The notes under the pieces were generated by a model. It saw nothing but the letters and a program-made list of their open reading frames with translations. It made no database searches and had not been told where the DNA came from. A stretch of 64,000 nucleotides of DNA, from the sequence record OL615011. The stretch is one strand, 5' to 3'. Position 1 is the first letter of the stretch, and every line of letters begins with the position of its first letter. Source of the DNA: Shigella phage vB_SboS_Gloob. The position numbers and the translations under genes are program-made. This document shows, piece by piece, positions 998-62,116 of the stretch.

Positions 998-1636
998 TTA
1001 CGGCGTTGGGTTCACCACAGGAATATGGAATCTGATCCCGGCGATGATATCCTTCAGCTGAGGCTTCCATCCATCCACCAAACGGGGGAGAGCGATAGCA
1101 CCAGGCTGAACTAAAATGATGTCGCTGCCTGTGATATTGTGCTGAGGGAACTGGGCAAGGTACTGCTCCATGGTGACACCCTCATCAATCAGAACCGCAC
1201 CGACGTCAGACGATGCGTAGGTTGCACCCAGACCGTCAACGCCCCACGCCAAGATGCCCCAGTCAGGGATGTTGGCTTCAGATGTGATGGTGAATCCAAA
1301 CACGGTGTTCAGCGAGGTGAAGGAATAGACATCGTGAGTTATGTCATACACCAGATACCCCTTGGCCAGCATATCGGCAAAGATCGCGTCCGTATCTCCC
1401 GCCGCCAGAGTCGGTACAGTAAACAACAGCTCGCCCTCAGGAGGGGCAGGATACGTGCCGAGGGCATAGAGGCACCATGCATCAATGCACTTCTTAATGA
1501 ACGCCTCGGGTGCGACGTAATCGGCAAGGCGCACAGTCCCCGAGTACTCGGATACGATGATTCCTTCCTTCGCGCCCTGTAGAGCGATGAAGACCAAGAT
1601 ATGTTCATATCCGGTCTGAGATGGAGTGATGTTCAT
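998..1636 (-). CDS. hypothetical protein
   Basis: ORF track 998..1732; start moved to internal Met (MNITPSQ), which overlaps the stop of the upstream gene (ATGA coupling). Confidence 0.5.
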   Translation of the reverse strand: MNITPSQTGYEHILVFIALQGAKEGIIVSEYSGTVRLADYVAPEAFIKKCIDAWCLYALGTYPAPPEGELLFTVPTLAAGDTDAIFADMLAKGYLVYDITHDVYSFTSLNTVFGFTITSEANIPDWGILAWGVDGLGATYASSDVGAVLIDEGVTMEQYLAQFPQHNITGSDIILVQPGAIALPRLVDGWKPQLKDIIAGIRFHIPVVNPTP

Positions 1637-2250
1637 TATCTTGTCCTCTTCAGTTTCTCTATCGTGCGCTTGTTCATGGCGATCACCCGAGGATCTACCT
1701 CGGAGATGGTCCGGCCTTTGAAGGACACACATTTCTGAAGATATTTAGCTTTCTTCACGACGTCAGCGGCATAAGCGTTCGATGCGGGATTACGGGCGAA
1801 GCCAGCATTGTAAGAGGAGAGGGATTTGCGTACATTCTGCTTGTGATAGGTCAGCCAGAACTGCATCTCATCGAGGGCGGCTTGCGCGGCATATTCTTGG
1901 TCGGTCAGCAACTTTATGGCGACATTGGCATAGCACTTGCGATTCTTACAACCTTCGCGATCACCAACTGTCTTCACCTTGTTCTGAAAGGCTCCCATGT
2001 TGGCCGCCTTGAGACCGTAGCGCATTGACACTACATCTTCACCAGCACGGCTCTCTCGCCAAGATATGGCAGCCAGGGTGTAACCAAGATCTTGTGTCTT
2101 GCCTATGTGATAGGCAGTTGCCAGCGTATTAAGTTGTTGCTCAGAGAAATCATAAACACATTGACTTGTATTTTGGGAAGCGTGCACATTCCCGCTGGCA
2201 ATGGTAAAGGTCACGGACAAGGCCATGGCCTTCAACGTTGTCATCGTCAT
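1636..2250 (-). CDS. secreted protein with lytic-transglycosylase-like (SLT-like) ES...GL motif
   Basis: N-terminal signal-peptide-like segment (MALSVTFTIASGNVHA); ISWRESR...YGL motif; late-promoter-like motif upstream. Confidence 0.35.
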   Translation of the reverse strand: MTMTTLKAMALSVTFTIASGNVHASQNTSQCVYDFSEQQLNTLATAYHIGKTQDLGYTLAAISWRESRAGEDVVSMRYGLKAANMGAFQNKVKTVGDREGCKNRKCYANVAIKLLTDQEYAAQAALDEMQFWLTYHKQNVRKSLSSYNAGFARNPASNAYAADVVKKAKYLQKCVSFKGRTISEVDPRVIAMNKRTIEKLKRTR

Positions 2251-2628: not shown

Positions 2629-2938
2629 ACGTTTGTCTCAGGTGTTCAGTAAAGGATTTACCCAGCTTGCGGAATAGTTTAATACGACCAATGACTTTGA
2701 CGTAAACATCTCCGTGGCAGGGGCGTGGCTTACACCAGCACCCCAAGATCTTCCCGTCAAGCTCAAGGAGTTCATCCTCGGTGATATCCCCTTCAATCAG
2801 GCGCACATACAGGTCTTCTTCAAACAGTTCGATGCAGACGCCTCGTCCATGGTCTTTGACCTCGAACGGGTTCCCCCATTTACCAGGCCGACCAATGTAG
2901 ACATCGTATGGATCCTTCTTGAAGTGTACGACTTTCAC
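2609..2938 (-). CDS. small protein with RPGKWGNPF motif (DUF4326-like)
   Basis: VYIGRPGKWGNPF motif; proposed GTG start overlapping the upstream stop (GTGA). Confidence 0.35.
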   Translation of the reverse strand: MKVVHFKKDPYDVYIGRPGKWGNPFEVKDHGRGVCIELFEEDLYVRLIEGDITEDELLELDGKILGCWCKPRPCHGDVYVKVIGRIKLFRKLGKSFTEHLRQTYERRQR

Positions 2939-3249
2939 ATATCCTCCAGGTCGTCCCCTACCACAACCATGAATTCTAAGCCCCTGTCCATGATCAAGTC
3001 TATCGCTCTGGTGCTGCCGCTCCCCTGAACACACCAGTATTTGAATGGTCCAAAACGGTGTAGAATCTTGATGATCATCAACTGCATGCTTTTGTGGGCG
3101 TCATTGTAGCGCGACTTGTACTTCTTGGAGAACCATCCGTGGTTCAGGCTTTTGTAACGGTAAAGGAACCACAGGCGAACAGCCTTGTACAAACGCTTTT
3201 TCGCGCCTGTGGAATCCTTTGAAACCCTGATTACTTTGTTCATGATCAA
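2935..3249 (-). CDS. hypothetical basic protein
   Basis: 104-aa ORF; ATGA overlap with the gp46-like gene. Confidence 0.4.
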   Translation of the reverse strand: MIMNKVIRVSKDSTGAKKRLYKAVRLWFLYRYKSLNHGWFSKKYKSRYNDAHKSMQLMIIKILHRFGPFKYWCVQGSGSTRAIDLIMDRGLEFMVVVGDDLEDM

Positions 3250-5583: not shown

Positions 5584-6699
5584 TTATGCGTCCAGTTTGT
5601 TCAGGCGTTGTTGGGCAGCATTGTAGAAGTGCTCTGCAAGTTTACAGACGTTTTCAGGGCGCTGGATGTTGTTCCCGGCGCGGATATCCTTCTTCAGGAC
5701 TTCCACTGCATCGGTTGCCACCATCTCTTCGGTGACCTCAACCTTCTCAGCCGCCACGGTGATAGTCCGGTCGATGAAGTTGTAGTCAATGCACTTGCAG
5801 CGCTTCATGGCATCACAGAACTTTTCATAATGCTTAGCATTGTCGCGGTTCTGTACGATAACCTTAACGATTTGCCCTTCAATACCCAAGCCTGTGTTCA
5901 GCCATTCTGGGTCGATCCAGTTACCCTCATCGTCTGAGGACAACTTGGTGTAGTCATACTCCACATAGCGGAACAACGTCTGGTGCTCGCTGTTGGGGAT
6001 GAATACCTCTCCGCCGCGCATGTCGTCCACATAGAAGCCACGGTTGGTGCCGTCTTTGTAGTCTTCCCAATTCAGGTGATACGGAGTCCCAAGATACTGA
6101 ATGTTACCTTCCATCGAACGGGTATGGAAATGCCCCGTGTCGACCCTGTCAAACTTGGAAAGGAGCGCAACGTCGATCTGACCGTGATCACAAGTAGAGG
6201 ACTGGTACATTTTGAACCCCGCCAACTCCAGATGCGCAAAACAGTACTTGGCGTCCGTAGCGTGTATCGCCGCAATAGATGCATCGTAGTTTTCCTTATT
6301 GATCCACGGTAGGAGCAGAGTCTTGACACCCTCGATCATCACTTCGGTCGGTTCGCTGTAGTAGCAGTACACATCTGGGTCGAGTTCGTTCAGGTAGGAT
6401 GGCCAGTTGATGCGGTTGGACTCTTCCAGGGTGATGTCGTGGTTGCCAACAATGCCATTCCACTTGATACCAGCCTCTTTCAGCGCCGGAGTCAGCTCAT
6501 CTTTCAACCAGTCCTTGTCACGACCGTACATGAATTTGCGGACATCAAATGTGTCACCAAACTGCCACACCTCATGGATGTCGGAGGCGACAAGTTCAGG
6601 GATGAAATAATTGATGAGGTAGTTCTTGATGAAGTCGCGAACGTAACGGGAACCATTACGGCTCCCGATATGCAGATCGCCGATTTTAGCAATCGCCAT
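5584..6699 (-). CDS. 47: recombination nuclease subunit, Mre11/SbcD-like (T4 gp47-like)
   Basis: GDLHIG, GDTFD and GNHD phosphoesterase motifs, collinear with T4 gp47. Confidence 0.85.
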   Translation of the reverse strand: MAIAKIGDLHIGSRNGSRYVRDFIKNYLINYFIPELVASDIHEVWQFGDTFDVRKFMYGRDKDWLKDELTPALKEAGIKWNGIVGNHDITLEESNRINWPSYLNELDPDVYCYYSEPTEVMIEGVKTLLLPWINKENYDASIAAIHATDAKYCFAHLELAGFKMYQSSTCDHGQIDVALLSKFDRVDTGHFHTRSMEGNIQYLGTPYHLNWEDYKDGTNRGFYVDDMRGGEVFIPNSEHQTLFRYVEYDYTKLSSDDEGNWIDPEWLNTGLGIEGQIVKVIVQNRDNAKHYEKFCDAMKRCKCIDYNFIDRTITVAAEKVEVTEEMVATDAVEVLKKDIRAGNNIQRPENVCKLAEHFYNAAQQRLNKLDA

Positions 6700-7427
6700 T
6701 ATTCTGTTTCTCCTTCGGTTTCGTCCAAATCGAATTGGGTTTTGCCGAAGTCCTGATCTGAATTGTCTTCGGCCTGCGCTGTTACCGTATTCTTAGCCTG
6801 CGCCATGTATTGAAGTATGCCTTTCGCAATCTTTTTATTCGATTCTGCGAGACGAGCTGCCTCCACCTTCTCTCGCTCCTTCTGCCTTTGAGCGTCCTTT
6901 TTGTTCTCAAAGTTGCCGATACGTTCACGGAAGTCCATGCCAATCCCTGTCGCATCAACAAAGATCTCTTGTTGGAAATCGGGATCGTCTGCCAGCCCTG
7001 CGAACCCACCCGCCTCTTCAAATGAGCGCAATTTGATGTACGTATGTTCTTCTTCGATATTCAGTTTACGAGCAAATGAGCGATCCGCACACATGGTCAC
7101 CCAAGAGAAGAAGTTGATCTTCCCTTTCTTTCCAATGTGGTCGACGTCAAAGGTGTGGAGGTAACGCAGGATGTTGACGATTGCTTCAGAGACCATGTCT
7201 TCACGGAAGGGATAGTCGCGATAGTTGTAGCGGGTGCTCATCTTGGTGATGATGCGCTGGACCTGTAGAGCAACATAGTTGGGGATCTTTGGAAGCCTGG
7301 TGCCTTCAGCCAGAGCCTTCTTACGAGCAGGGATCCAATCACGAAGGATACTGATGACACGCTCGTTATCTTCGTCCGTGAAATATTTGACGACATTCTC
7401 GCCACGATCAACATAATTCATACCCAT
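6699..7427 (-). CDS. 55: late-transcription sigma factor (T4 gp55-like)
   Basis: Segment-by-segment resemblance to T4 gp55 (ILRDW, RYNYRDY, HTFD, NFFSWVTMCADRSFARK) with an acidic C-terminal extension. Confidence 0.6.
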   Translation of the reverse strand: MGMNYVDRGENVVKYFTDEDNERVISILRDWIPARKKALAEGTRLPKIPNYVALQVQRIITKMSTRYNYRDYPFREDMVSEAIVNILRYLHTFDVDHIGKKGKINFFSWVTMCADRSFARKLNIEEEHTYIKLRSFEEAGGFAGLADDPDFQQEIFVDATGIGMDFRERIGNFENKKDAQRQKEREKVEAARLAESNKKIAKGILQYMAQAKNTVTAQAEDNSDQDFGKTQFDLDETEGETE

Positions 7428-10992: not shown

Positions 10993-11277
10993 TTATTGGG
11001 TGTTTCCTTTGGAGATGAATGATTCCATGTCTTCCCGAGAAATAATCGTTTCTACACGATCTTCATCGATCAACATTTCGTTCAGAAGGTCATAGCCCAG
11101 GACTTTCACACCACGCACACCCCAAGACTTTTCCCTCAGCTCTGACTCAATACTGAGAACTCTCTGAACCGTCAGGCCACCAGAAGAGAATGGGACCGGA
11201 AAGAAAGCAGAACACACTTGGGCACACCCATTCACGCTGTATCGAACCAGCAGGACATCACACCATACGCCAGCCAT
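10993..11277 (-). CDS. hypothetical protein
   Basis: 94-aa ORF, same strand. Confidence 0.35.
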   Translation of the reverse strand: MAGVWCDVLLVRYSVNGCAQVCSAFFPVPFSSGGLTVQRVLSIESELREKSWGVRGVKVLGYDLLNEMLIDEDRVETIISREDMESFISKGNTQ

Positions 11278-14937: not shown

Positions 14938-15308
14938 AACGTACCCCCGACAGAGATCAAGAACTCTTCTTCAATGGTCGTGACCGGGCGGCGGTTGCGG
15001 GTTTCGATCATGAAGCCCCAGCCGCCGTCGGCGACGTTGCCAAAGGTCTTGACGCCAAAGGTCTTCTTCCCGTTGGAGCAGGCATAGAAGTCCAGGATGA
15101 ACGGGCTACCCTGATTGTCGATCCCACGGTTTACGCCGTCCGCTACACAGCGCTCAATCATCTTCCCGTTCTTATACAGAACGAGGTCTTGGCCATACGC
15201 CTTGAAAGCATAAACGCCGCTGGTAGACACTCCGGTGATGACAGGAGGAGCGGAAACAGCAGAGAAGGAAGCGCCCAGCAGGGCAACAGCGAGGATTAAC
15301 TTTTTCAT
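14934..15308 (-). CDS. putative secreted protein
   Basis: ORF track 14934..15329; start moved to MKKLILAVALLGASFSAVSA (signal peptide) preceded by AGAG CTATATC. Confidence 0.5.
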   Translation of the reverse strand: MKKLILAVALLGASFSAVSAPPVITGVSTSGVYAFKAYGQDLVLYKNGKMIERCVADGVNRGIDNQGSPFILDFYACSNGKKTFGVKTFGNVADGGWGFMIETRNRRPVTTIEEEFLISVGGTL

Positions 15309-15332
15309 GATATAGTCTCTTGGTTTCAAATG

Positions 15333-16268: not shown

Positions 16269-18512
16269 TTAGATTTTGATCTCTTTCTCTGCCAGTTCGG
16301 CAGTGACCTTGTACTTCACACCATCCACTTCAACTTCCATGGTGGACTCTTCCAGGTCGAGGTCGGTGAACCAGCCGTGGCCAGCAACGATACCATAAAC
16401 CACTTTAGACAGCGTCTTGTTCAGGGCGCGGACTTCGGTGATGGCCGCCTTGGCAGCAGCGTCGATCCAGTTTTCGATCAGCTGTTTCTGTACGGCTTCA
16501 GGCACGGCAGTGATCGCAGGAGACTTCACGAATGCTTCGTATTCCTTCAGAGCATTGGCGATGAACAAGTCACCCGCATTGAGTTTCTTGTTCTCGGCAA
16601 TCTTCTTCTGTACTGCCGCGATGCTCGGCAGAGAAGACGCTCCAGCGATCTTAACGTTCAGCTCACGGCTCATGTAGACATCCGTGGAGTCCTTCAGTTC
16701 GGTCTTCGGTGAGAAGCCGTAATCACGGATGCCGTAGGAGGACAGGAACTCAGCCGCCTCAGCGCCGTACTGTACTGCCAGGCCTTTGGCGTTGCCTTTG
16801 CCAACCAGTTCATCACGGAAGAACTTCAGCACCTTCTGCTTGCCTTTCAGGGCTTCCAGACGGACATTATCCGCAAAGAACTGAGCAGCACTGATGTTCT
16901 TGACCATGGCGCGGTTGACCAGCGGTACGCTTTCCAGGTTCAGGACAAACACTTCCGGACCACCGAACACATGGACGCCCATCTGGCACAGATTGGTTAC
17001 AACTTCAACATCAGCCCTGAACGGCAGAGTCTTCACGTTGATGATGCCGTCTTTGACGATGGTGTAGTTGCGCCATTGGAAAGTATCCAGTTCTTCAGGC
17101 AGACCGAACTTCTTCTGCACGAACTCCGGAATCGCCACAGTGCCGTGCTGGACAGTGCGTACACTGATATTAGGGCGTTCGGAGTTATAGACCAAATCGC
17201 TGATTGGCACAACACCCAGATCGTTGGTAGGTTCGAACGTCGGGTTCCACTCTTCGTGCTCGGCCAGCTTGAGAGCCAGGGCTTTGCGCTCTTCTTTGGA
17301 CTCGGCGTTCGCGATCTGTTCTGCCAGCTTGTCTTCGGTATCGTCCAGTTTCTGAGCCGTACCGCGACCGATGCTCTTGTAGGAGAACATAGGATGTTTG
17401 GTGGCAACACACACGCCAGCTTCAGCCAGATACGTCAGCACGTCAACGACGGTCGTCGCATCTTCAGCCGGGACCAGGTCATAGTCAATACCGTCAACGC
17501 CGCGCAGCTGGTCATCAACGATGGCCTGGGTCAGATCAACTTTGATGTTGGAGTAGTCCTGCTTGGTGAAGCAGTTGCTGTACTGTTTGATGAAGCGGAC
17601 GTCGCCCGTTTTCTTCAGTGCAGCCCACACCAGGTCTGCGTCCATGATGTGTACGCCGTAGAACGCCAGCACGTATGCCGCCTGGATGTCCGCCAGCGCA
17701 TCAAGTTGGTCGATCATGTTAGGATTGACGACCCACAGCTTCGTGACGCTCTCAGGGATGCTCACGTGGCCAACGGGATGCTCTGCGTCTGCCTGTACCG
17801 CCAGAACAGTTGCTACGCCGTTTTCAACGTAGATGGCATGATCATACAGCAACGGAACATCAACAACCACCTTCGGAACTGAGGACTTCAGCACGGTTTC
17901 CAGCTCGGCCTGATACTCAACCTGACCTTCGGCAAACACGTGAGTCGCACCGGAGCGCTCAGACATCAGAGCCAGCAGTTCGCGGTTACAGTACCAGCCG
18001 TATTCGATGAAAGTGACGTTGTCGAACGCGGAAGGAAGTTTTTCGGCGGTGTCCAGGATCTCATTGGAGCGCCAGCAGTTGTCATAACCATCGGTCATGA
18101 ACGCCAGGTTGTTGACGTAGCCGGGTTTCTTCAGGTCACGCGCAGTATCCATCGCCAGTTTCAATGGCTCAACAAAACCAGTACAGCCGGACGGTTGTAG
18201 GAAGCGGTCGATCAGTTTGTTCAGCTCGCTCAGGTCAGATGCTGCACTAACCTGACGGCCAGCGAACACAGTACCAAAGTCGCCACGGGATGAGAAATAC
18301 AGAACACTCACAGTGTCTTCCGGTTTCACCAGAGAAGGCAGGTTCTCCTTCAGATGCTTACGGACTTCAGGGAGCGCCCGGTACATTGAACCGGAAATGT
18401 CTACAACGATTACATGGTTGGACGGAGCAGCAGTCGCAACCACATTCTTAAATTCTAATGATTCAATCATTGTTCTCTTCGCCTTTTGCGTAAGGGTTAA
18501 GTTCAGACTCAT
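16269..18512 (-). CDS. large protein with N-terminal von Willebrand factor A (vWA) domain
   Basis: MIDAS motif VVVDISGSM near the N-terminus; 747 aa. Confidence 0.5.
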   Translation of the reverse strand: MSLNLTLTQKAKRTMIESLEFKNVVATAAPSNHVIVVDISGSMYRALPEVRKHLKENLPSLVKPEDTVSVLYFSSRGDFGTVFAGRQVSAASDLSELNKLIDRFLQPSGCTGFVEPLKLAMDTARDLKKPGYVNNLAFMTDGYDNCWRSNEILDTAEKLPSAFDNVTFIEYGWYCNRELLALMSERSGATHVFAEGQVEYQAELETVLKSSVPKVVVDVPLLYDHAIYVENGVATVLAVQADAEHPVGHVSIPESVTKLWVVNPNMIDQLDALADIQAAYVLAFYGVHIMDADLVWAALKKTGDVRFIKQYSNCFTKQDYSNIKVDLTQAIVDDQLRGVDGIDYDLVPAEDATTVVDVLTYLAEAGVCVATKHPMFSYKSIGRGTAQKLDDTEDKLAEQIANAESKEERKALALKLAEHEEWNPTFEPTNDLGVVPISDLVYNSERPNISVRTVQHGTVAIPEFVQKKFGLPEELDTFQWRNYTIVKDGIINVKTLPFRADVEVVTNLCQMGVHVFGGPEVFVLNLESVPLVNRAMVKNISAAQFFADNVRLEALKGKQKVLKFFRDELVGKGNAKGLAVQYGAEAAEFLSSYGIRDYGFSPKTELKDSTDVYMSRELNVKIAGASSLPSIAAVQKKIAENKKLNAGDLFIANALKEYEAFVKSPAITAVPEAVQKQLIENWIDAAAKAAITEVRALNKTLSKVVYGIVAGHGWFTDLDLEESTMEVEVDGVKYKVTAELAEKEIKI

Positions 18513-18678
18513 CAGCGGCTTCGATGCGCGCCTTTACAGAGTCCAGCATATTGTTGATAAACTCACGAGACTGCTCCAGCTGAGCCAAGAGCACATCCTT
18601 TGGAGCATAGTTCTGAATGCAAGCCGGAATACTTTCAGACGTCGCCTTCAGGTCGGTAAAACATTCTTTCAGTACCAT
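18463..18678 (-). CDS. hypothetical small acidic protein
   Basis: 71-aa ORF between the vWA gene and the NAMPT-like gene. Confidence 0.3.
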   Translation of the reverse strand: MVLKECFTDLKATSESIPACIQNYAPKDVLLAQLEQSREFINNMLDSVKARIEAADESELNPYAKGEENND

Positions 18679-18755
18679 TTGATCTCACTTAACAGAGACG
18701 ACGCCCTGTTGGATTTAATAGCGGTCTTCACAGACATCAGGTTTACCTCAAAACA

Positions 18756-18771
18756 GGGGAGTCTCCTCCCC
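18756..18771 (-). terminator. hairpin terminator downstream of the NAMPT-like gene
   Basis: ggggagtctcctcccc stem-loop followed by a T-run on the minus strand. Confidence 0.45.
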
Positions 18772-18779
18772 TTCGGTTA

Positions 18780-20444
18780 TCAGATTTGTGATGCCAATTC
18801 TGCCACCAGAGGAGCAGCACGAACACGCGCATCTTCCAGAGTCTGGGTGTTGAAGAACTTGCCGTCACGATACACCAGCTGGTGCTGGTTGTCGGCGTCT
18901 TGCACCTGATCAAAGGTGATACCGTCAACCAACACTAGTTTACCCTGAGAGTCTTTAATGACTTTAAGGAAACCACGCGCAGACTTTTTAGTCCCGCCTT
19001 TGTCGGTCTTCGGCTCTTTGAAGATCTCACGGAATTCGCCGTTCACTTTACCAGCCGTTGCTTTCACTGCCGTGCCAGTACTGTCACGGGTGTTCATCTG
19101 GTAGGTGTAGGAACCGATACCGAACACCACGTTGATGGAAGCAAAGTTCCGGCCAGCCAGACGACCAAAGATCTGGTCTTCACGTGCCAGGGTGATGGAG
19201 TCGCCGTAAATCAGACCGATGTGTTCGTCCAACAGGAAGTGACCAGTTTCGGTCTGGGTCCCGCCAAAGATCTCCCACAGGCGCTGGATAGAGCCGACCG
19301 CTTCTGAACGACTGATGATATTGCGGTCATCTGCCATCAGAGAGTTGATCGTGCCTTCGCCTGTAATCAGGTGATAGGTGTTCGTCTCTTCGATGTGAAT
19401 GACTTCGGTGCTGCTAGACACGCCGCTGATGTTCAGCATAGCGCGGTCTTTGAACCCCTCAATGCGGTAGCCGCCGACGATATGAACTGGGTCGCCCGAG
19501 TCAGGGCGGATCACGACTTTGCCGTTGCGTGCCATGATAATATCTTTCAGGCGCGGCAGATAGTCGTCGATGACCTGCCAGTAATCCCACGCATCAGACA
19601 CGATGCTGACGATGCCATCAGGATACACGTCCTGCACCAGGCGGCGGAAGGTTTCGAATTCACCATCCTTCGTACCCATACACATCACGGCGTGTTCGGT
19701 AGCCGCAACAGAACCAGCAACGACATAGTCTTCGTCGATGTCTGCGCCATAATACTCTTCTACGAAGTCCAGGGCAGGGTTGGTATCGGTGCCTTTGAAG
19801 AACACCAGATGACCGGAACCGGAAGACGCCGCGTCATGCCACCCACTCATACCACGGAAGGAGAAGTCGTGGCCTTGGTAGTCGATGAACCAATGGTCCG
19901 GCGACACGCCTGTAGCGAGGGCAGCTTTCACCATCAGTGCCTTGTAATGCAGAGCGATGGTGGCGTTCGTCATCGGCTTCCAGATCTCAGAGCTGAACAC
20001 AGTCTCCAGATAGTTGGTCAGCCAGTAGAACTCCGGCAGGGTGTTGAACATCACATACACCGGAACGCCATATGGGCACATGGTGCCTTCAGGCAGAGCA
20101 CGGACTTCGATAGGCAGGTAGCCGAGGTCATGCAGGGCTTCAATATGCTCTGTGCCGACGCGGCCTGGACCCAGGACTTTGTTCATGCGACGGGCATACT
20201 TCTTCAACACCTTGGCCTTTGGGCGCTGGAAGAATGCTTCGTCAAACAGTTCGTGGAACCAGGTCATGAAGCCCTGGATGCCCCAGACCACCACGCCGTT
20301 CTTCGGCAGGTGAGAGTTGAACAGTTTGTTGGAGCGCGGAGTTCCGTTGGAGAACACCAGCTCGCTGCCTTCAGGGAACTGATAGATGTGCCCTGATTTG
20401 TAGAAGTCGATTGCATGGATTGGATCTAAGTGGCGCATGCTCAT
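18780..20444 (-). CDS. nicotinamide phosphoribosyltransferase (NAMPT/NadV) family enzyme; candidate nicotinamide ADP-ribose transferase
   Basis: Collinear with human NAMPT: LPIEVRALPEG...EFYWLTNYLETV, HDFSFRG, GHLVFFKGTDT, VIRPDSGDP. Confidence 0.85.
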   Translation of the reverse strand: MSMRHLDPIHAIDFYKSGHIYQFPEGSELVFSNGTPRSNKLFNSHLPKNGVVVWGIQGFMTWFHELFDEAFFQRPKAKVLKKYARRMNKVLGPGRVGTEHIEALHDLGYLPIEVRALPEGTMCPYGVPVYVMFNTLPEFYWLTNYLETVFSSEIWKPMTNATIALHYKALMVKAALATGVSPDHWFIDYQGHDFSFRGMSGWHDAASSGSGHLVFFKGTDTNPALDFVEEYYGADIDEDYVVAGSVAATEHAVMCMGTKDGEFETFRRLVQDVYPDGIVSIVSDAWDYWQVIDDYLPRLKDIIMARNGKVVIRPDSGDPVHIVGGYRIEGFKDRAMLNISGVSSSTEVIHIEETNTYHLITGEGTINSLMADDRNIISRSEAVGSIQRLWEIFGGTQTETGHFLLDEHIGLIYGDSITLAREDQIFGRLAGRNFASINVVFGIGSYTYQMNTRDSTGTAVKATAGKVNGEFREIFKEPKTDKGGTKKSARGFLKVIKDSQGKLVLVDGITFDQVQDADNQHQLVYRDGKFFNTQTLEDARVRAAPLVAELASQI

Positions 20445-21295
20445 TTTACACGTCCTGTATTTTCAGTTTTGAAAGGAAGGCCGTCGGTGGTGATATTCTC
20501 CCACCAGACAGTGTCGGCATACACAGCATCATAGATCCCGTCGAAAACAGAGAGACCTTTGCTGAAGATGCCATGGGTGACGAAGAGCGTCATGTGCTTA
20601 GGCTCGTGCTTCTGAAGCTCTTTACCCAGCTCAACAAACGTGCGCCCGCCATCGCAGATATCATCAACCACCACCAGATAGCGGTCTTTGATCAGTTCAG
20701 GGTTTGTAATGCTCACCCCAATGATCTCACCAGTCTTGGTGTCACGGTTCTTGTGGCCGTAGACAACAGGAACACCATCCAACGACAGGCTGAGGGCTTC
20801 GGTCTTCTTCGCCGCGCCGCCGTCAGGGGCTACTAGCACAGCGTTGTTCCCACGGATGAACCAGCCCAGATACTGCCGCACGATGTAATCTTGCGGGACA
20901 ACATGGACGTTGTTGATCAGAGAAGACACGACATGGCTGTGAGGGTCTTTGATCGCCACGCGGTCAAAGTTCATGCTATTGATGAACTCAGCCGCCCACT
21001 TCACGGACAGAGGCTCGCCGAAGTCGCAATGGCGGTCCTGGCGAGCATACGGGAAGTAAGGGATATACGCATGGAAGGTCGTCAGACGGTCCACGTTACC
21101 CAGGCCGCGCACGGCGTTTACCAGAAGCGCCAGCTCAATGAAGTCGGCTGATGATTTGATGTGGGCATCAATCACAACCGTCTGAATCTTACCGACAGGA
21201 ATACCAGCCTTTTGGATCTTGATATGTTCCTCACCACCTGGGAAGGTGAAGTGTTTGTAGAACACATCTTGGTCGTTCAATTTCAAACGAAACAT
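20441..21295 (-). CDS. ribose-phosphate pyrophosphokinase (PRPP synthetase) family enzyme; candidate ADP-ribose pyrophosphate synthetase
   Basis: IPYFPYARQDRH and VVVDDICDGGRT match Prs motifs; ATGA overlap with the NAMPT-like gene. Confidence 0.8.
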   Translation of the reverse strand: MFRLKLNDQDVFYKHFTFPGGEEHIKIQKAGIPVGKIQTVVIDAHIKSSADFIELALLVNAVRGLGNVDRLTTFHAYIPYFPYARQDRHCDFGEPLSVKWAAEFINSMNFDRVAIKDPHSHVVSSLINNVHVVPQDYIVRQYLGWFIRGNNAVLVAPDGGAAKKTEALSLSLDGVPVVYGHKNRDTKTGEIIGVSITNPELIKDRYLVVVDDICDGGRTFVELGKELQKHEPKHMTLFVTHGIFSKGLSVFDGIYDAVYADTVWWENITTDGLPFKTENTGRVK

Positions 21296-21326
21296 AATGT
21301 AGCCTCATGGTGTATTGTACAGCCGT

Positions 21327-21332
21327 ATTATA
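21327..21332 (-). promoter_or_regulatory. sigma70-type -10 hexamer (TATAAT) upstream of the NAMPT/PRPS operon
   Basis: Perfect TATAAT about 30 nt upstream of the PRPS-like start; -35 is weak. Confidence 0.35.
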
Positions 21333-21401
21333 CTGTGATGCACAAATTGAAACACCCAGCAAATATACTGGGCGTCATTGATATTGAAGGAGTTTACTGA
21401 T

Positions 21402-21768
21402 TCAGGTTTTGGATTGTTCACATACCTCGGCCACCTTGCGACACATGTCGATATCGAACAAGCCAATATGACACTCACGCTTCTTTATCCCCAGCTTATG
21501 CGCCAGCCAACTGTAAGCGTCGCTCCTGCTCCTCTCTCCGCTTTTCCACAATGGGTCAAACGATCTGCTTCTCGGCACGGAGAGCGGCATTCGCCATCCT
21601 TCCCAGAGGTTGTCTGCCGTCGCCATGGGCATGGCAACCGACACGAGCGTCACATGGAGTGCATACCCAGAACTTCAGATTGCGGAGGTCAGGGCGATGA
21701 GGGTGGAGGACGTCACCACCGATGAATTCGGCTGGGAGGCCGCAGTAATCACAGATGACAGGTTTCAT
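21402..21768 (-). pseudogene. zinc-ribbon (CxxC...CxxC) phage protein interrupted by a frameshift
   Basis: N-terminal half (MKPVICDYCG...CTPCDARVG...GRMANAALRAEKQ) and C-terminal half (SFDPLWKSGERSRSDAYSWL...CHIGLFDIDMC) lie in two overlapping frames, one-nucleotide shift near 21560. Confidence 0.45.
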
Positions 21769-21787
21769 ATTCTTTGTCCAAAAGAAA

Positions 21788-21804
21788 CCCCGCACATGGC
21801 GGGG
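21788..21804 (-). terminator. hairpin terminator upstream of the zinc-ribbon gene
   Basis: ccccgcacatggcgggg stem-loop followed by a T-run on the minus strand. Confidence 0.4.
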
Positions 21805-21828
21805 TTGCTCAGGCCGAGGCCAACAGGG

Positions 21829-22200
21829 TTATTTCAGCAGCGCTTCCAGTTCTTCAACAGATTTGCCTTCCAGCTCCTGCTGTTTCTTACGCTGGATCAG
21901 CTCCAGGATAACCTGGTTGTTCGCCTTACGCTCTGCCGCGTCTTTGCTGTCGTCACGCTCTTTCAGCTTAACGCCGATGATGTGCTTGACAACGTCGAAG
22001 CGCAGCTGCAGTTCGGAGTCAACGTTGCTTTTGGTGCCGATGAAATCTTCTTCATCGGTTTCCGCTGCCTTCACCTGACGGCTCAGACCTTTCGCCATTT
22101 CGTTCAGGGCAGTCAGGCTCAGGTCCCAGACCTGCTCAACAGACAGCAGACCTTTGTTAGACTCGAAGCGCAGTTTCAGACGGGTTGCTTTATCAAACAT
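21829..22200 (-). CDS. hypothetical protein
   Basis: 123-aa ORF. Confidence 0.45.
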   Translation of the reverse strand: MFDKATRLKLRFESNKGLLSVEQVWDLSLTALNEMAKGLSRQVKAAETDEEDFIGTKSNVDSELQLRFDVVKHIIGVKLKERDDSKDAAERKANNQVILELIQRKKQQELEGKSVEELEALLK

Positions 22201-22244
22201 TTTACTATCCTCAATGATGAATGGGTTACAGTTTCAAATCAGGT

Positions 22245-24263
22245 TTAGAAAACAACTTTCACAGTGCGGTTGAAAGAGCCGCTCACCTTCACGAACACGT
22301 GGTTGCGTTGGGTGGTAGAGAAGCCCAGACCGGACAGCTGCTCAGTGCTTGGCTGTACTTTAATCTTACCGCCCAACATTTCAAAAACCTTGCGGTGTTT
22401 ATCAAGTTCCGGCTTCAGATACTCGTTATAGAAGCCACGAGTGCCGACAGGGTTAGCACAACCTTCCAGAATGAAGAACACGTGCTTGTTGCCTGTCTGT
22501 TCGCCATCCCAATGGTTTGGTGAGTTCAGAACCAGCTGTACCTTCTGGAAGACAGCGGTCTTGATACCCCAGATTTCCTGGGAGCGAGCATCGTCCTTCA
22601 GGGTAGAACGGATGTCTACCACTTGTCCAGCGCGGACATCAATCACAACAGCCAGAGTGCGATCTTTGTGCTTCAGGCCAGGATGCGAAAAACGCTTGGT
22701 CTGGCCTTTGTATTCAACTTCGATTTCGAAGCCCATATCACAGGTTTCACGCTGGCTGAAGTTAGTGACATAGAACTCGTACAGACCATCACGCAGCTTG
22801 CGTTCATCGCTGAAGAAGATGTTCTCCACCGGGCGGCGGTTGGGGTCAATACCGTCCATACCGTTCATGTCGATATCCAGGGTTGCGCCAGTTGCCGAAC
22901 GACGGTTGTGATAATACACGTGGTTGTGAAGAGGATCGTTCAGGCTCAGATCCAGGTCATCGTTGTTATGCCACGCCAGGGACACACGGAGGAAACCGTC
23001 AACGTTGCCGCCTGCCGTCTTCACGCGCTCTTTGATGGAGTCGGCCACTTCACCGTTGTATGACCAGCTGAAGCCGTTGTTCCACTTGAACAGGTTAGGA
23101 GCACCTGCCGTAGCCGGAGCGATCAGGGACATCAGGTTGCCAGTGTGAGAGTTTTCAACCAGCACTTCCAGGGAATGCGCCTTTGGCAACACGTTGGTCA
23201 GGAAGTCGTCGATGGTGATCTCTTCAACCTTGTCCAGGGACTTGGTCGGAGTCTTCACTTCAGACGCCAGCTGAGCAAACGGGTCCATCTTCTTCTGTGC
23301 TGCCAGGTCGGCAAACAGAACGTTGTTGATGGTCAGATCGTCATACACGGCATAACGGCGACCCAGTGAATCAGTCAGACCCAGCGCTTCGACTTCTTTC
23401 TGCGCGTTTTCAATCATGGACTTCGTGACCAGCGCGGTTGGGCGCTTGTAGTTCGTCGGAGCGACTTTGGCTTCAAAGGACTTCACGGCGGTTTCCAGAT
23501 CCCGACCTTCATTGAGGTCTACCAACAGAGAGCCAATCACGGTATTGCGGATGCCGTGAGGGGTGTGTCCGTTTGCACGGTAGCCAGTACGCCAAGCCCA
23601 CAGAGCGCGTTTCTCTTCTGCAGTTTGTTCGTACAGGGTCTTGCTCGTCACGAACGCCTGCACAGCAGCTTTGTGCTCTTCACCACGATACAGAGAATTC
23701 TGATCAATCAGTTCCAGAACGATTTCGGCCGATTCCAGAGACAGTTCACGCAGGCCGCGCTCAAACACTTCAATCGCCTGGCGGATTTCACCCTTCTTAG
23801 AAGCGATGGCATCAGCCCGCAGAACATAGCTGGGCAGCAGGTCGGTGTGGAAGTGGTTGTAGGTGCGGACATTACCGTCTTTCATTTCGTGATTCGACTC
23901 AACGCCGACTTTCTTGGTATCGTTGAAGTACACGTCGACGATTGCGTGTTGCTTGACATACGCAGACAGCGCCGCAGCGACAACGTCGTATTCGTTACCC
24001 AGCTGAATGTTATCCCAGATAGAGATCACGTTCAGGTCGGCGTCGATGGTCACCACACCGCCGATGTTACGGATGAATTGTTTACAGCAGGTGCAGTCGT
24101 GCTCGGTGCGCTCACGGTAGAGCGGGTTGGTGCCAGCAGGGAAAGAGTTCAGATACAGATCCCACAGAGCATCTTTATCGATGTTGGTCATGAACAGACC
24201 AGTTGCTGACATGGCCAGCACATTATTGTTTACGGCTACTGCGAAGGGCTTAAATTCTGACAT
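22245..24263 (-). CDS. large hypothetical protein (672 aa)
   Basis: No polymerase, ligase or P-loop motif recognised by eye; contains a CTCC cysteine cluster. Confidence 0.5.
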   Translation of the reverse strand: MSEFKPFAVAVNNNVLAMSATGLFMTNIDKDALWDLYLNSFPAGTNPLYRERTEHDCTCCKQFIRNIGGVVTIDADLNVISIWDNIQLGNEYDVVAAALSAYVKQHAIVDVYFNDTKKVGVESNHEMKDGNVRTYNHFHTDLLPSYVLRADAIASKKGEIRQAIEVFERGLRELSLESAEIVLELIDQNSLYRGEEHKAAVQAFVTSKTLYEQTAEEKRALWAWRTGYRANGHTPHGIRNTVIGSLLVDLNEGRDLETAVKSFEAKVAPTNYKRPTALVTKSMIENAQKEVEALGLTDSLGRRYAVYDDLTINNVLFADLAAQKKMDPFAQLASEVKTPTKSLDKVEEITIDDFLTNVLPKAHSLEVLVENSHTGNLMSLIAPATAGAPNLFKWNNGFSWSYNGEVADSIKERVKTAGGNVDGFLRVSLAWHNNDDLDLSLNDPLHNHVYYHNRRSATGATLDIDMNGMDGIDPNRRPVENIFFSDERKLRDGLYEFYVTNFSQRETCDMGFEIEVEYKGQTKRFSHPGLKHKDRTLAVVIDVRAGQVVDIRSTLKDDARSQEIWGIKTAVFQKVQLVLNSPNHWDGEQTGNKHVFFILEGCANPVGTRGFYNEYLKPELDKHRKVFEMLGGKIKVQPSTEQLSGLGFSTTQRNHVFVKVSGSFNRTVKVVF

Positions 24264-24378
24264 GATGTAGTCTTCCTGTTTCAGTTCAAATGTGCGCCCC
24301 GTTTGCCAGAGCGCTTCGTTTAAGTGAGGTCAATAATACGTTGAAAAAGGTTATTGAAGAATGAAGTAAAGGGAATCT

Positions 24379-25599
24379 TTATTCAGGTTTCTTCAAACGG
24401 TCCAGCAAATTGACGGAACCACGTTTGAGCACGACTTCATCACAGCGCTTTTTGTATTCCCCGCCGCCGTCATAGCTGACCTTGCCCCGAGGTTTTTCAC
24501 CGCGCCCAACCGCCTCAACACAGCGAGTGTACTTGCTCAGTTCACAGAACATGTTCTCCAGCTGCATGACGTTCATGCACTGATCTACAGGCTCTTCGGC
24601 TGACCAGAATTGCTCGCGAACATACCCATATTGGGAGTATACTGCGTCCTGATTATCCCGTAGCCAGAATATGCATTCTTCGTGAGTCATGCCGTCTTTG
24701 TTCAGGAACAGCAGATCAATACCTGCGCGACAGCCCGGTCCGGCTATCGTGAAGTGGTTCTCACTGAACGGATAACCAGGCATGTACGTGAAGTCAACCC
24801 AGATCTGGTATGCCAGGAATGGACCAAGACCTTCGATGTCGTCGTACATGCGCTGGTATACTTCCAGAGGAGTACCAAGGCGCAGCAGGTCATGGAAGTA
24901 ATTTGGATACTTGTTGACGAATGCCTTCAGGGAACGGATGACACGCATTGGCATGTACGGCTCCCAGCCTTCGATGGTGTAGAAGTCCGGCTCCGCTTCA
25001 GCGATGGCCTTGGCTTCCTTATAATCCATGTTCTGGGTCGAACCATCTTTGCAGATCAGGTTCACCATCATCCCACCGAAGCGCTGCTCTTTGTGGTTGA
25101 CAACCAGCTCAGGGAAAGCCAGGCATTGCTTCAGACCGCCCGTGTTGAAGGCATTGGTGAATACTTTACCGCCGTCGGCCTCGAACTTCTGAAGTCGTTC
25201 GCGGGTTGCGTCAAGGTTGATCTTGGCGAATTCTTTGATCGTCATCGCGCCGCCGATAGCCTGGATCGGATCCCAGAGGTTGAACATGCGGAACAGCACG
25301 CAGTTAAACATCTTGTCTGCCATACCCAGAGCATCGTTGTTGACGATGTTGTTGATCAGGTTAAGAGACTGCCTGTCGTGCTCTCTCCGGACGTTACAGA
25401 ACTTGACCTGCCGTAGTATAGGATTATTCGTCCAAGGGGCAGGAAGACGCTGGACGTCCTTCTTGACGTGGATCTTATAGCGCTCGCTCATCCATTCGTA
25501 AGACAGGCGGGTATGGGTCGGACTGAGAACCGGTTTGGCCGACTTTATCTTTTCTTCACGGACACCGCAGTACGGGACGTCCAGGGCTTTATCTTTCAT
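24379..25599 (-). CDS. hypothetical protein (406 aa)
   Basis: Long ORF, function not recognised. Confidence 0.5.
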   Translation of the reverse strand: MKDKALDVPYCGVREEKIKSAKPVLSPTHTRLSYEWMSERYKIHVKKDVQRLPAPWTNNPILRQVKFCNVRREHDRQSLNLINNIVNNDALGMADKMFNCVLFRMFNLWDPIQAIGGAMTIKEFAKINLDATRERLQKFEADGGKVFTNAFNTGGLKQCLAFPELVVNHKEQRFGGMMVNLICKDGSTQNMDYKEAKAIAEAEPDFYTIEGWEPYMPMRVIRSLKAFVNKYPNYFHDLLRLGTPLEVYQRMYDDIEGLGPFLAYQIWVDFTYMPGYPFSENHFTIAGPGCRAGIDLLFLNKDGMTHEECIFWLRDNQDAVYSQYGYVREQFWSAEEPVDQCMNVMQLENMFCELSKYTRCVEAVGRGEKPRGKVSYDGGGEYKKRCDEVVLKRGSVNLLDRLKKPE

Positions 25600-35703: not shown

Positions 35704-36012
35704 TCAAGAAAAATTGAACTTGTTGTCAACGAAGGTCAGGCGGGAGCATACTTCTTCAACTGCATCAACCATCATAAAATCTTTGAATGCTTCATGCAAG
35801 GCATTCAGGAAGGAAGCTGGGACTAAACCACAAGCCGGGTTGTCAAACAGAGCTGAAGCAACTACTGCGTTGTAAGTTGAATCAGGAGTAGCAGACTGGC
35901 ACAACATCATGGCTTCAGCGTTCTTTACCGCATGGTATTTAAAGGTGTTAACCACAGTGGTTTTGTTGGATTTTGCCAGTTGAGCTTCGAATTGTTCTTT
36001 GGTGATTGTCAT
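35704..36012 (-). CDS. hypothetical protein
   Basis: ORF track 35704..36033; same upstream cassette as the gene at 519..890. Confidence 0.5.
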   Translation of the reverse strand: MTITKEQFEAQLAKSNKTTVVNTFKYHAVKNAEAMMLCQSATPDSTYNAVVASALFDNPACGLVPASFLNALHEAFKDFMMVDAVEEVCSRLTFVDNKFNFS

Positions 36013-36059
36013 GATATAGTTCCTTCGCTTCAAGTTGGTATTGTGTTGCTTGTCCTTGA

Positions 36060-36087
36060 AGTATACGGGGTTTATTGAAGAAGTAAA
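36060..36087 (-). promoter_or_regulatory. sigma70-like promoter (TTTACT, 16 nt spacer, TATACT), copy 2 of a duplicated cassette
   Basis: Hexamers read on the minus strand; about 70 bp of similarity with the cassette at 893..982. Confidence 0.45.
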
Positions 36088-36112
36088 CCCCGTTTATTGA
36101 ATAAATTTAAAA

Positions 36113-36349
36113 TTATTTGAAGCGATCCGGAAGGGTGTCGTGAACCTCGGCGCTCAGCACCAGGTACTTGCCGTCTTTAGTGGGGAAGCAATAGTCTTTC
36201 TTGATGTGTCGCATGTGTTCAGCCGTGGCCGCCACGCAGTCTTCGGTCACATCAGTCTTCTCACCGACCCACATGCTGGTCTTGGTGTTCAGGGTGCCCT
36301 GGAAGATTGTCCCAGTGAGTGGGCTTGCGCCGATCTTTTTAATTCTCAT
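36113..36349 (-). CDS. hypothetical protein
   Basis: Start at the ATG preceded by GGGAGA; ATGA overlap with the upstream gene. Confidence 0.4.
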   Translation of the reverse strand: MRIKKIGASPLTGTIFQGTLNTKTSMWVGEKTDVTEDCVAATAEHMRHIKKDYCFPTKDGKYLVLSAEVHDTLPDRFK

Positions 36350-36723
36350 AATTTCTCCCAAGTCCAGGTTTGAGCTTTAGCCTTTCCGATGACAGGAATA
36401 TCCCGGTGCATATTCCGGAATGACCCAGTCTGATAGAAACTGATCTTCACCCGTTCATGGTTGACGCTCTGAGCCCACACATGATGGCCGTCTGGGTAAA
36501 ATTCACGTTCGTTACCGCCGTCTTTGGCCACCCGAGTTACGACATAAGTGTCGATCAGATAATCGAATACCGTGTTAGAATCCGGGGTGGCTTCGCCCTG
36601 GCTTGTGGTCCAATCACCAACGCAATTTGAGTAAAGAAGATGATTCGGAACCTCAGTCAGGACAGTCATTCCTTCTTTGATTTCGAACACATCACCAACT
36701 TGAAGCAGGGGTAAATTGCTCAT
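36346..36723 (-). CDS. hypothetical protein
   Basis: 125-aa ORF. Confidence 0.45.
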   Translation of the reverse strand: MSNLPLLQVGDVFEIKEGMTVLTEVPNHLLYSNCVGDWTTSQGEATPDSNTVFDYLIDTYVVTRVAKDGGNEREFYPDGHHVWAQSVNHERVKISFYQTGSFRNMHRDIPVIGKAKAQTWTWEKL

Positions 36724-36731
36724 AACAGACC

Positions 36732-37172
36732 TCAGCTAATGCGGAACAGATGTGGATAACCACCAGGATGGCCCTGACCCGTAACGAACACATCGAACTT
36801 AGATCCTTTGATCAGGCCGGGGAGATTACCAGAGTCCAGCAGTTCGCGGATCTGATCCATCGCCAGCATCCAGTTCTTAGCAGGTTCAGCTTCAGCCTCT
36901 CCACGATTGAGGACGAGTTCACCTTCAGAATAATACTTCCCGCTGTCTTTCATATAGTACAGCTTGATATGGATGTACTGAGGGGACGGGACCAAACGCC
37001 AGCCATCGTCAATCAGATCCTGGCGATCATTATCCAGGGACTGGTAATCGATCTCACCAGACGCCAGACCATAGCTGCGCATGTAGCGGAACTTCTCAAC
37101 ACGGTCTTTTACGTCAGAGATGAAGAACTCCTTCGTGGCAGGACTGATGAAAATGTATTTCTCTTTTGACAT
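36732..37172 (-). CDS. hypothetical protein
   Basis: ORF track 36732..37193; start moved to the ATG preceded by AGGAAGG and CTATATC. Confidence 0.5.
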   Translation of the reverse strand: MSKEKYIFISPATKEFFISDVKDRVEKFRYMRSYGLASGEIDYQSLDNDRQDLIDDGWRLVPSPQYIHIKLYYMKDSGKYYSEGELVLNRGEAEAEPAKNWMLAMDQIRELLDSGNLPGLIKGSKFDVFVTGQGHPGGYPHLFRIS

Positions 37173-44379: not shown

Positions 44380-46275
44380 TCAGGAAGCGGCTACGATGCC
44401 ACCGCCAGTTTCGATCTCGCTGAACTCCATGTCCGGACGTACTGCAGCAAAGTCCAGATACACCCAGTTGATGGAGTATTCTGGTTTCAGCCAGATACCC
44501 GCAACCATCTGGTTCGCAGCGATGATGTCGGCGGTGTTGTTGTCGGCGTCGCACTTCACCTGACCATCGTAGATCGCACCCATGTTGGCCAGCTGGCGGA
44601 TATACGGGCGTACAGCGTTGCTGAACAGGCTACGAGTGAATTCATCGTTGTTCTCACCAAGGTAGTATTTGGCGATTGCAGCGATGTTCTGCTCGGCCAT
44701 GATGAACAGGCCGCGAACGTTGATGCGGTCAAACGCAGACGGGCGAGTCAGACCAGTCTTGTCGCCGTACAACACGATGCCTTCGTTGGAGAAGGTGACG
44801 ATGCTGTTGATCTGGTTGCGATACAGCACAGCACGCTCATCAGAAGACGCAGACCACGCCATGCGGTTATAGTTGTTGTATTTGCCACGGTTGTGGAACG
44901 CAGGGGATTTGTAGATGCCCGCGATCTCAATGCTGCGTGCCCAAACACCCGCCGTACCACCACAAGCAGGGATCCAGCGCATCTTGTCGTTGTACTTGTC
45001 GTACACATACGCCCAGTTGTCGTCCATGAAGAAGTAGGAAGAGTCACGTACCAGGCTTTCACGCCAGGCCACAACATCTTCCATCTCACGACCACGGTTG
45101 CCGACCACAACGTCACGCAGAGGAGACACGAAGGACACAGTGTCTTTGCGCTCGGTGGAGAGATCAATCAGCGTCTGTTGCTCAATGAGTTCTTCGCAGA
45201 ATGCAAACACAGGCTTGGCGTCATACGCTTCGGCATTGTTCAGGGCTTCAATGGCCGCCACACGGTTGCCAGTGTAATCGTCTACACCACCTTCGAGTTC
45301 AGTGACGCCAGCAGCCAGGGTAGTGGCGAAGGTGTACACCCAATTTGAGGTGTCGTTGATCACGTCTTTGAAGTACGCATTGGAGCCATCGGATTTCTTA
45401 GAACCCTGAGTGGCCTGCATCAGTTCATATTTTTCGATAATAGAACCGGAAGCACCAACAGTGGTGGTCACTGCAGTCGCAGTCAGACCGTTCGCATCAG
45501 GAACGATAGCAGTCACAGCCTGAGGACCGATTGCTTTGTGAGTGACGGTGACGGTGTTGGACTTCACGACAACAGAAGAATACACGTCAGTCAGAGCCGT
45601 CAACGCAGTGCCGATTTTGGTCGCCAGGGTGGCCGGGGTGTCAGTATCAGTGTACGCCACGTCTTCGCCAGCAACAGAGATTGAGCCTGCACCAGTAGCC
45701 GTACCGGATACAGAGATACGATCAACCTGACCAACAGCGCCAGAAGAATCTGTGATGCGACCGACTTTGTCAACGATGACGATGTGGTATTCGCCAGCCT
45801 GTGGAGCATAGGCGAAGTTGTTACGGAATTCCCAAGTCGGGAATCCAGCAGCATCACACACGTTGATCGCAACGTCGTTACCCAGGGAGCCAGCATAGCG
45901 GCCTGTCCAGGTAATAGACGCAGATGGGGACGCGGTTTCGAAGTCCAGTTTGTTACGGATAAGGATTGCAGTCTGACCTTTGGTTACAGCGTTACGTGCC
46001 GCCGGACCGACCACACGGGTCACCCATGCAACAGAGCTGTAAGACAGGAAGTCAGCAATCACCAGGAAGTCGGTGGCAGTTGCATCGTTTGGCTTGAAGA
46101 ATTTCTTCACCAGACCAGTTTCACCACCAGTGACCAACACAGGGAGTTCTGCTTCACCCCATTGGAATTTACCGACGGTCGCACCCTGAACAACAACGGA
46201 TGGAGACGTCTGAAGCGTGGCATCACGCTCAGTCCACTGTACGGACGGCGCAACGCTGAAGCTTTGAGTTGCCAT
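44380..46275 (-). CDS. 18: tail sheath protein (T4 gp18-like)
   Basis: GKFQWGEA near the N-terminus and LYGDKTGLTRPSAFDRINVRGLF near the C-terminus match T4 gp18; ORF track 44380..46308, start moved to MATQSF. Confidence 0.92.
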   Translation of the reverse strand: MATQSFSVAPSVQWTERDATLQTSPSVVVQGATVGKFQWGEAELPVLVTGGETGLVKKFFKPNDATATDFLVIADFLSYSSVAWVTRVVGPAARNAVTKGQTAILIRNKLDFETASPSASITWTGRYAGSLGNDVAINVCDAAGFPTWEFRNNFAYAPQAGEYHIVIVDKVGRITDSSGAVGQVDRISVSGTATGAGSISVAGEDVAYTDTDTPATLATKIGTALTALTDVYSSVVVKSNTVTVTHKAIGPQAVTAIVPDANGLTATAVTTTVGASGSIIEKYELMQATQGSKKSDGSNAYFKDVINDTSNWVYTFATTLAAGVTELEGGVDDYTGNRVAAIEALNNAEAYDAKPVFAFCEELIEQQTLIDLSTERKDTVSFVSPLRDVVVGNRGREMEDVVAWRESLVRDSSYFFMDDNWAYVYDKYNDKMRWIPACGGTAGVWARSIEIAGIYKSPAFHNRGKYNNYNRMAWSASSDERAVLYRNQINSIVTFSNEGIVLYGDKTGLTRPSAFDRINVRGLFIMAEQNIAAIAKYYLGENNDEFTRSLFSNAVRPYIRQLANMGAIYDGQVKCDADNNTADIIAANQMVAGIWLKPEYSINWVYLDFAAVRPDMEFSEIETGGGIVAAS

Positions 46276-59631: not shown

Positions 59632-59664
59632 AACGAATCTCCTGTTGTTATTCTCAATGGAAAG

Positions 59665-59687
59665 CCCCACTTAGTTAATAAGTGGGG
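59665..59687 (-). terminator. hairpin between tailspike genes B and A
   Basis: ccccacttagttaataagtgggg stem-loop in the intergenic region. Confidence 0.4.
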
Positions 59688-59709
59688 AAAGGAAAGGTGT
59701 AAAATTAAT

Positions 59710-61932: not shown

Positions 61933-61949
61933 AGAGGATTTGCCAATAT

Positions 61950-61962
61950 GGGGTATTTAGTG
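61950..61962 (-). promoter_or_regulatory. late-promoter-like motif CACTAAATACCCC upstream of tailspike B
   Basis: Motif forms one arm of an inverted repeat (ATACCCCAT / ATGGGGTAT) that includes the first ATG. Confidence 0.5.
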
Positions 61963-61971
61963 AATGGATAA

Positions 61972-61987
61972 GGAGTCGCAGGACTCC
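61972..61987 (-). terminator. hairpin downstream of tailspike gene C
   Basis: ggagtcgcaggactcc stem-loop just upstream of the late-promoter motif. Confidence 0.4.
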
Positions 61988-62116
61988 CACTTGTTTTATA
62001 TGATTACGAATTTACCCAGGCTGATATCGTTAATCAGCGTAGCCACTATGTTTGCCAGTTGGGTGGTTGTTAACGTGTTCACATGACCACGCAATTGCTG
62101 GCTACAACAATGATTG

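Follow-up and report, generated by a model that had tools for sequence, protein, structure and literature searches.

A probable recent pseudogene of the DUF3268 zinc-finger family in Shigella phage vB_SboS_Gloob

Two pieces of what appeared to be one small zinc-binding protein lie in adjacent frames on the minus strand of the Shigella phage vB_SboS_Gloob genome (record OL615011). The question was whether they are the remains of a broken gene, the parts of a gene that still works or the product of a sequencing error. The whole stretch analysed, hereafter the window, comprised 64,000 nucleotides. An earlier note on this DNA had placed a single-nucleotide frameshift near 21560 in a phage zinc-ribbon gene and had offered a pseudogene or a sequencing indel as the explanation. 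Gloob belongs to Agtrevirus (Ackermannviridae) and was about 96% identical to P46FS4, ChubbyThor, SKML-39 and Ag3; the gene was of phage type, as the note had supposed, and belonged to Ackermannviridae. With good confidence, we regard the locus as a recent and genuine pseudogene, formed by an 11-bp deletion in a conserved DUF3268 gene at a deletion-prone accessory locus.

Two halves of one DUF3268 gene

The features of the locus are given in Table 1. In the ORF list, the N-terminal half was opened either by the ATG or further upstream by a GTG (21556..21795, minus strand). The mechanical ORF of the C-terminal half was opened upstream by a GTG at 21653 (21402..21653, minus strand), and the two frames overlapped and were both open from 21653 to 21556. 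The N-half read MKPVICDYCG...CTPCDARVGCH...GRMANAALRAEKQIV before its stop; it comprised the homologous codons 1-67 followed by an out-of-frame Q-I-V and the TGA, and translation from the normal ATG stopped after 70 residues. The C-half ran from R72-S-F-D-P-L-W through C-H-I-G-L-F-D-I-D-M-C to its TGA and contained ...RSFDPLWKSGERSRSDAYSWLAHKLGIKKRECHIGLFDIDMCRKVAEVCEQSKT before the stop. With an intact orthologue as the tblastn query, frame -2 (21768-21565) matched residues 1-68 and frame -3 (21566-21414) matched residues 72-122, and the pieces abutted at 21565/21566.

The PF11672 (DUF3268) profile, whose gathering score is 28.4 bits, was exceeded by each half and by their fusion. The N-half covered profile positions 2-66 (E 8.6e-11, 42.7 bits), the C-half covered positions 70-120 (E 1.5e-16, 61.2 bits), and the conceptual fusion, a plain concatenation, covered positions 2-120 of 121 (108.2 bits, E 4e-31). 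This pattern of two halves of one gene was far beyond chance. The ORFs, the profile and the tblastn placement thus agreed with the earlier claim of two zinc-protein halves in adjacent frames. The N-terminal CxxC...CxxC ribbon of the family was present in the N-half as C6, C9, C36 and C39 (CDYCG...CTPCD). The central motif A-H-x-x-F-D-x-x-W was broken: Ala70 and His71 were gone, F-D-P-L-W was found only in the +1 frame, and the family domain was spread over two frames instead of one contiguous ORF. Judged from the sequence, the window would contain a disrupted gene of the PF11672 family, not a functional member. No second, compensating DUF3268 copy was found by tblastn in the 64-kb window.

The proteins of the window at this locus were exact matches to Gloob UHS64967-UHS64970. 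UHS64968.1 (79 aa, 'putative zinc-finger-containing domain protein') was identical to the N-half read from the GTG at 21795; the 70-aa product read from the ATG had no entry in the gene-position index. The consecutive accession numbers UHS64967.1-UHS64970.1 show that the C-half is unannotated in GenBank. An antisense shadow ORF of the zinc-finger gene (115 aa) was open at window positions 21378-21725 (plus strand). In the P46FS4 GenBank record, the antisense ORF48 (122 aa; fetched locus 1460-1828, plus strand) is annotated and the real, intact DUF3268 gene is omitted. Farther along, the records of Gloob and ChubbyThor give the name 'putative DNA-directed RNA polymerase' to a 672-aa protein (window 22245-24263, minus strand). 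This protein matched only PF26675/DUF8224 (precomputed) and nothing in the Pfam or NCBIfam scans, and its RNA polymerase name looks unsupported.

Table 1. Features of the DUF3268 locus of Gloob in window coordinates.
Feature	Position	Strand	Remarks
N-terminal half of DUF3268 gene	21556..21768	-	ATG at 21768, TGA at 21558-21556
C-terminal half of DUF3268 gene, +1 frame	21402..21566	-	TGA at 21404-21402
11-bp deletion junction	21566..21567	-	DNA alignment with relatives
Second lesion	21405..21432	-	27 bp in place of about 830 bp of P46FS4 (record 45041-45870)
SD-like AAGGA (21601-21597), 6-nt spacer and ATG (21590-21588)	21588..21601	-	C-half frame; putative, from sequence only
Terminator-like hairpin (AACCCCGCCATGTGCGGGGTT and T-run)	21786..21806	-	between 123-aa gene and zinc-finger start
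Ribose-phosphate pyrophosphokinase (prs) gene, intact	20441..21295	-	exact match UHS64967.1; now directly downstream
123-aa gene, intact, directly upstream	21829..22200	-	phrog_2018, function unknown; exact match UHS64969.1

The 11-bp deletion and the intact gene in relatives

The gene was aligned between the window and P46FS4, ChubbyThor, Marshall and AV101. A single 11-base gap occurred in the window only, and the alignment was otherwise gap-free at 92-97% identity. The whole-window alignment to P46FS4 also put the gap at 21566/21567, close to the frame switch of the earlier note. On the gene strand, the bases absent from the window were GAAAAGCCCAT, and some relatives had AGGAAGCCCAT. Since 11 bases equal four codons minus one base, the deletion took out codons 68-71 (R/Q-K/E-A-H) and moved the frame by +1. 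Both alignments therefore ruled out a single-base indel or a homopolymer miscall; the lesion lay outside any homopolymer, and the single-nucleotide frameshift proposed earlier was in fact the loss of four codons with a shift.

One ORF of 124-136 aa with the CDYCG and FDP[LI]W motifs was present in all 19 fetched loci, which represented 17 distinct phages from Agtrevirus, Kuttervirus, the Klebsiella phages KpS110 and May and unclassified Aglimvirinae. The gene of phage SJ2 was likewise intact (136 aa). In the wider family, tblastn recovered 678 phage records, the 60 rows sampled were all single-piece, and PF11672 was contiguous in each of eight further diverse homologues. The comparison with orthologues, which the earlier note had recommended, thus gave one ORF and no split in every relative examined. 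SJ2 ORF196 (W8JE75) and phrog_25081 were considered as a conserved split and rejected, because the SJ2 gene is intact and its start was mis-called at Met58. W8JE75 (fetched locus 870-1109) was a 79-aa 'C-half only' annotation artefact, and so was phrog_25081, a family built from such proteins.

Pairwise dN/dS values among the intact orthologues were 0.09-0.26 and mostly about 0.1, indicating that the gene is functional and under selection in the relatives. The halves in the window were 94-97% identical to the P46FS4 orthologue and differed from it by 3.5 nonsynonymous and 7.5 synonymous changes. No decay after the lesion was visible, which argues for a recent inactivation.

Surroundings of the locus and losses in other phages

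In Agtrevirus and Kuttervirus relatives, the zinc-finger gene is followed by a Phage_gp49_66-domain gene that overlaps or abuts it. The stretch lost in Gloob held this gene, which has 264 aa in P46FS4 (ORF49, fetched locus 662-1456); the Marshall orthologue has 290 aa with Phage_gp49_66 and RyR domains. Through this second deletion, the end of the zinc-finger gene became fused to what is left of the lost gene, its final bases, and the reading frame now ended in ...AEVCEQSKT and a stop (..RKVAEVCEQSKT). Hence, with about 830 bp replaced in addition to the 11-bp lesion, the locus was hit by two deletions in Gloob. AV101-type phages carried two unrelated small genes at the position of the lost gene, indicating that this position is an indel hot spot. 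An obligatory linkage of the zinc-finger gene to the deleted gp49_66-domain gene was not supported, because in AV101-type phages the zinc-finger gene is retained and other genes follow it. The terminator-like hairpin upstream was kept in relatives and is annotated as a terminator in phage Marshall. Similar to intact DUF3268 loci, the Gloob gene lay between the 123-aa gene and prs/nampt and had the four-Cys ribbon. In contrast to the intact genes, its frame was broken, His71 was missing and its C-terminal tail was altered by the second deletion.

Two other phages have lost the gene. Escherichia phage vB_EcoM-ZQ1 retained only codons 1-53 (fetched locus 1501-1850) beside a larger deletion, which also took the C-half, prs and nampt; the next annotated genes were those beyond nampt in relatives. 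Dickeya phage Ds3CZ (Limestonevirus) had two short remnants, residues ~35-64 and ~104-end, in different frames (fetched locus 1239-1700). These independent losses indicated that the DUF3268 gene is dispensable for propagation. In ZQ1 and Ds3CZ, as in Gloob, the gene was lost from this locus independently and through deletion; the deletions of ZQ1 and Ds3CZ were large, whereas the Gloob lesion was a minimal 11 bp with both halves otherwise pristine. Immediately upstream of the Ds3CZ remnants lay a 93-aa fragment from the N-terminal end of the 672-aa DUF8224 gene; the bulk of that gene was missing at the zinc-finger position, as was the 123-aa gene.

Other differences from P46FS4 were observed in the window. 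The late sigma factor (T4 gp55-like; window 6699-7427, minus strand) had 242 aa, compared with 263 aa in P46FS4, because the two alleles differ by 50 bp in the region of the acidic C-terminal tail, with the indel at ~6714-6721. The 242-aa form occurred in SKML-39, MK-13, ChubbyThor and Gloob and the 263-aa form in AV101, YX22 and P46FS4; since both alleles are widespread, the difference was a polymorphism and not a defect. Several small P46FS4 genes had no counterpart in the window (at ~15305-15321, ~35706-36739, ~10995-11060 and ~2937-3176), among them ORF57 (annotated pyrimidine-dimer DNA glycosylase) and ORF28, 29, 60, 67 and 76. The missing small genes represent accessory-gene turnover between otherwise 95-99% identical genomes. 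Proteins of the tail-spike region (window 59650-64000) had 30-79% identity to P46FS4 or no match, as expected for the Agtrevirus host-range module.

Protein, alternative readings and meaning of the lesion

In the alignment of 35 homologues, C6, C9, C36, C39, V43, G44, G56, A59 and H71 were invariant, as were F74, D75, W78, R85, Y89, L92, H104 and C113. The deletion therefore removed the invariant His71 together with the near-invariant Ala70. In the AlphaFold2 model of a close intact orthologue (pLDDT 93, pTM 0.81), three helices (61-79, 85-96 and 110-133) come after a beta zinc ribbon. According to the model, the break would fall inside helix 61-79, which joins both parts, and not in a linker. 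A second metal site bridging the two halves may be formed by His71, His104 and Cys113 together with either Cys45 or His46. In the intact protein, the four-cysteine zinc ribbon at the N-terminus would pack against a helical C-terminal part. The 11-bp deletion cuts four codons from the middle of the predicted helix, the invariant histidine among them, and shifts the frame by +1; a ribosome starting at the normal ATG therefore stops early, and the C-half is left without a conserved start of its own. The downstream neighbour has also been lost at this deletion-prone accessory locus. The missing invariant residue and the interrupted predicted helix point to a loss of function, although no degeneration beyond the deletion was found and the 70-aa zinc ribbon alone may retain some activity.

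The function of the family was explored by structure, profile and context. The PDB fold search gave nothing significant, its best results (E 0.3) being generic zinc ribbons, among them Rpb9 and GRF fingers; the PDB sequence-profile search gave only a marginal zinc-ribbon match, and BFVD returned uncharacterised DUF3268 relatives only. No match for the zinc-finger protein was obtained in NCBIfam, no relevant Rfam match lay in positions 20000-23000, not even to the DUF3268 RNA motif described in the literature, and no domain fusion of DUF3268 was informative. Known DUF3268 phage proteins include ChubbyThor gp164 (UGO47102.1), the 139-aa protein of Vi01 and PhiSH19 and phrog_1934; the literature on DUF3268, Gloob and ChubbyThor consisted of table listings without functional data. 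In the various phages, the gene is found among genes of replication, recombination or nucleotide metabolism. Its neighbour in AXL1 is DNA polymerase A, and in Septimatrevirus it has a RecA-like ATPase on one side and a Cas4-type exonuclease with a helicase on the other. Thymidylate synthase and a subunit of anaerobic ribonucleotide reductase are close to it in EFDG1, as are prs/nampt and clamp genes in the window. Our best guess is that the intact protein is a small zinc-dependent factor that binds nucleic acid or protein in the early or middle phase of infection.

Whether the lesion exists in the phage DNA was evaluated with Logan, an automated and independent assembly of the SRA run SRR17231375, which was taken to be Gloob's own run. 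Contig SRR17231375_3 was 100% identical to window 16441-25295 (8,855 bp, 0 gaps), the deletion included, and it also encoded the exact prs protein. About 65 of the approximately 80 syntenic P46FS4 CDS were full-length, stop-free and matched in a single HSP in the window, and the remaining ones were missing or diverged. Among the shared genes of the 64-kb window, the zinc-finger gene was the sole conserved gene with a frameshift; the other uncompensated non-3n indels relative to P46FS4 were all intergenic, as expected of an accurate sequence. A low overall sequence quality was thereby ruled out. If the phage gene were really intact and the 11 bases had been lost in silico, the lesion would be confined to one deposited genome, as it was; neither IMG/VR nor the JGI metagenome contigs contained the junction, and the flanking coding sequence had not decayed. 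Nevertheless, the identical sequence from an independent pipeline over 8.9 kb, a lesion of 11 bp that was not homopolymeric and the unbroken frames of every other full-length-aligning shared gene made a sequencing or assembly artefact very unlikely. The Logan assembly was probably derived from the same DNA preparation as the record, and therefore a laboratory-stock variant would be indistinguishable from the wild phage. Of the two explanations in the earlier note, the sequencing indel thus found no support, and the pseudogene was supported by the intact orthologues, the lost invariant histidine and the missing recoding signal.

A gene that is split but still expressed is quite improbable, either through a +1 shift near GUU-UGA-C or through separately working halves. 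Both frames are open across the overlap, both halves are nearly identical to functional orthologues, and the stop context of the N-half (GAGAAGCAGATC GTT TGA C) superficially resembles the CTT TGA C of prfB, in which a +1 change is likewise needed at or before a UGA followed by C. The prfB shift requires CUU-UGA-C and a Shine-Dalgarno sequence about 3 nt upstream, and the CUU tRNA can re-pair on UUU. In Gloob, however, the codon is GUU, no upstream Shine-Dalgarno stimulator is present, and the arrangement is not conserved, every relative having one ORF and PF11672 being contiguous in every homologue scanned; there is also no slippery heptamer, in line with the note, which had seen no obvious one. 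An SD-like AAGGA precedes an ATG in the C-half frame, and this ATG at 21590 could possibly act as an accidental internal start for a 62-aa product (MPLSVPRSR+SFDPLW...), but the AAGGA merely coincides with conserved Gly-Arg-Met codons of the N frame. Moreover, any such product would lack the invariant His71 and have helix 61-79 interrupted. It is also unlikely, though conceivable, that selection maintains the 70-aa zinc ribbon on its own, which would be domain loss rather than gene death. The N-half has a complete four-Cys ribbon that scored well above the Pfam cut-off, and GenBank lists it as a protein. However, no homologue consisting naturally of the N-half only was found in the searches, and the short annotated forms (SJ2 ORF196, phrog_25081) were mis-called starts of intact genes. 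The model is one compact unit with invariant residues across both halves, which also argues against a free-standing ribbon. It is a long shot that the 70-aa ribbon and a 62-aa C-half are both made, the latter from the ATG at 21590 or through an infrequent +1 shift at GUU-UGA-C, and come together again as a working DUF3268 protein; if true, it would be a natural case of protein-fragment complementation that tolerates the loss of His71.

The preferred reading therefore remains a recent pseudogene: the frame-breaking deletion is unique to Gloob among intact orthologues under selection, and the lesion is present in the independent assembly of a window with no other frameshifted shared gene. The case is an ordinary one, and its main value is the correction of annotation, as the 79-aa 'zinc-finger-containing domain protein' of the Gloob GenBank record would be the front half of a pseudogene and needs to be flagged. 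DUF3268 is an uncharacterised phage family that is widespread, as its number of phage records indicates. Although most Ackermannviridae conserve this gene and its neighbours under purifying selection, the Gloob locus adds to the evidence that they can be dispensed with in propagation and lie where deletions are frequent. Gloob would also be a natural knock-out, whose phenotype could be compared with that of ChubbyThor, a close relative that infects Shigella boydii and carries an unbroken copy.
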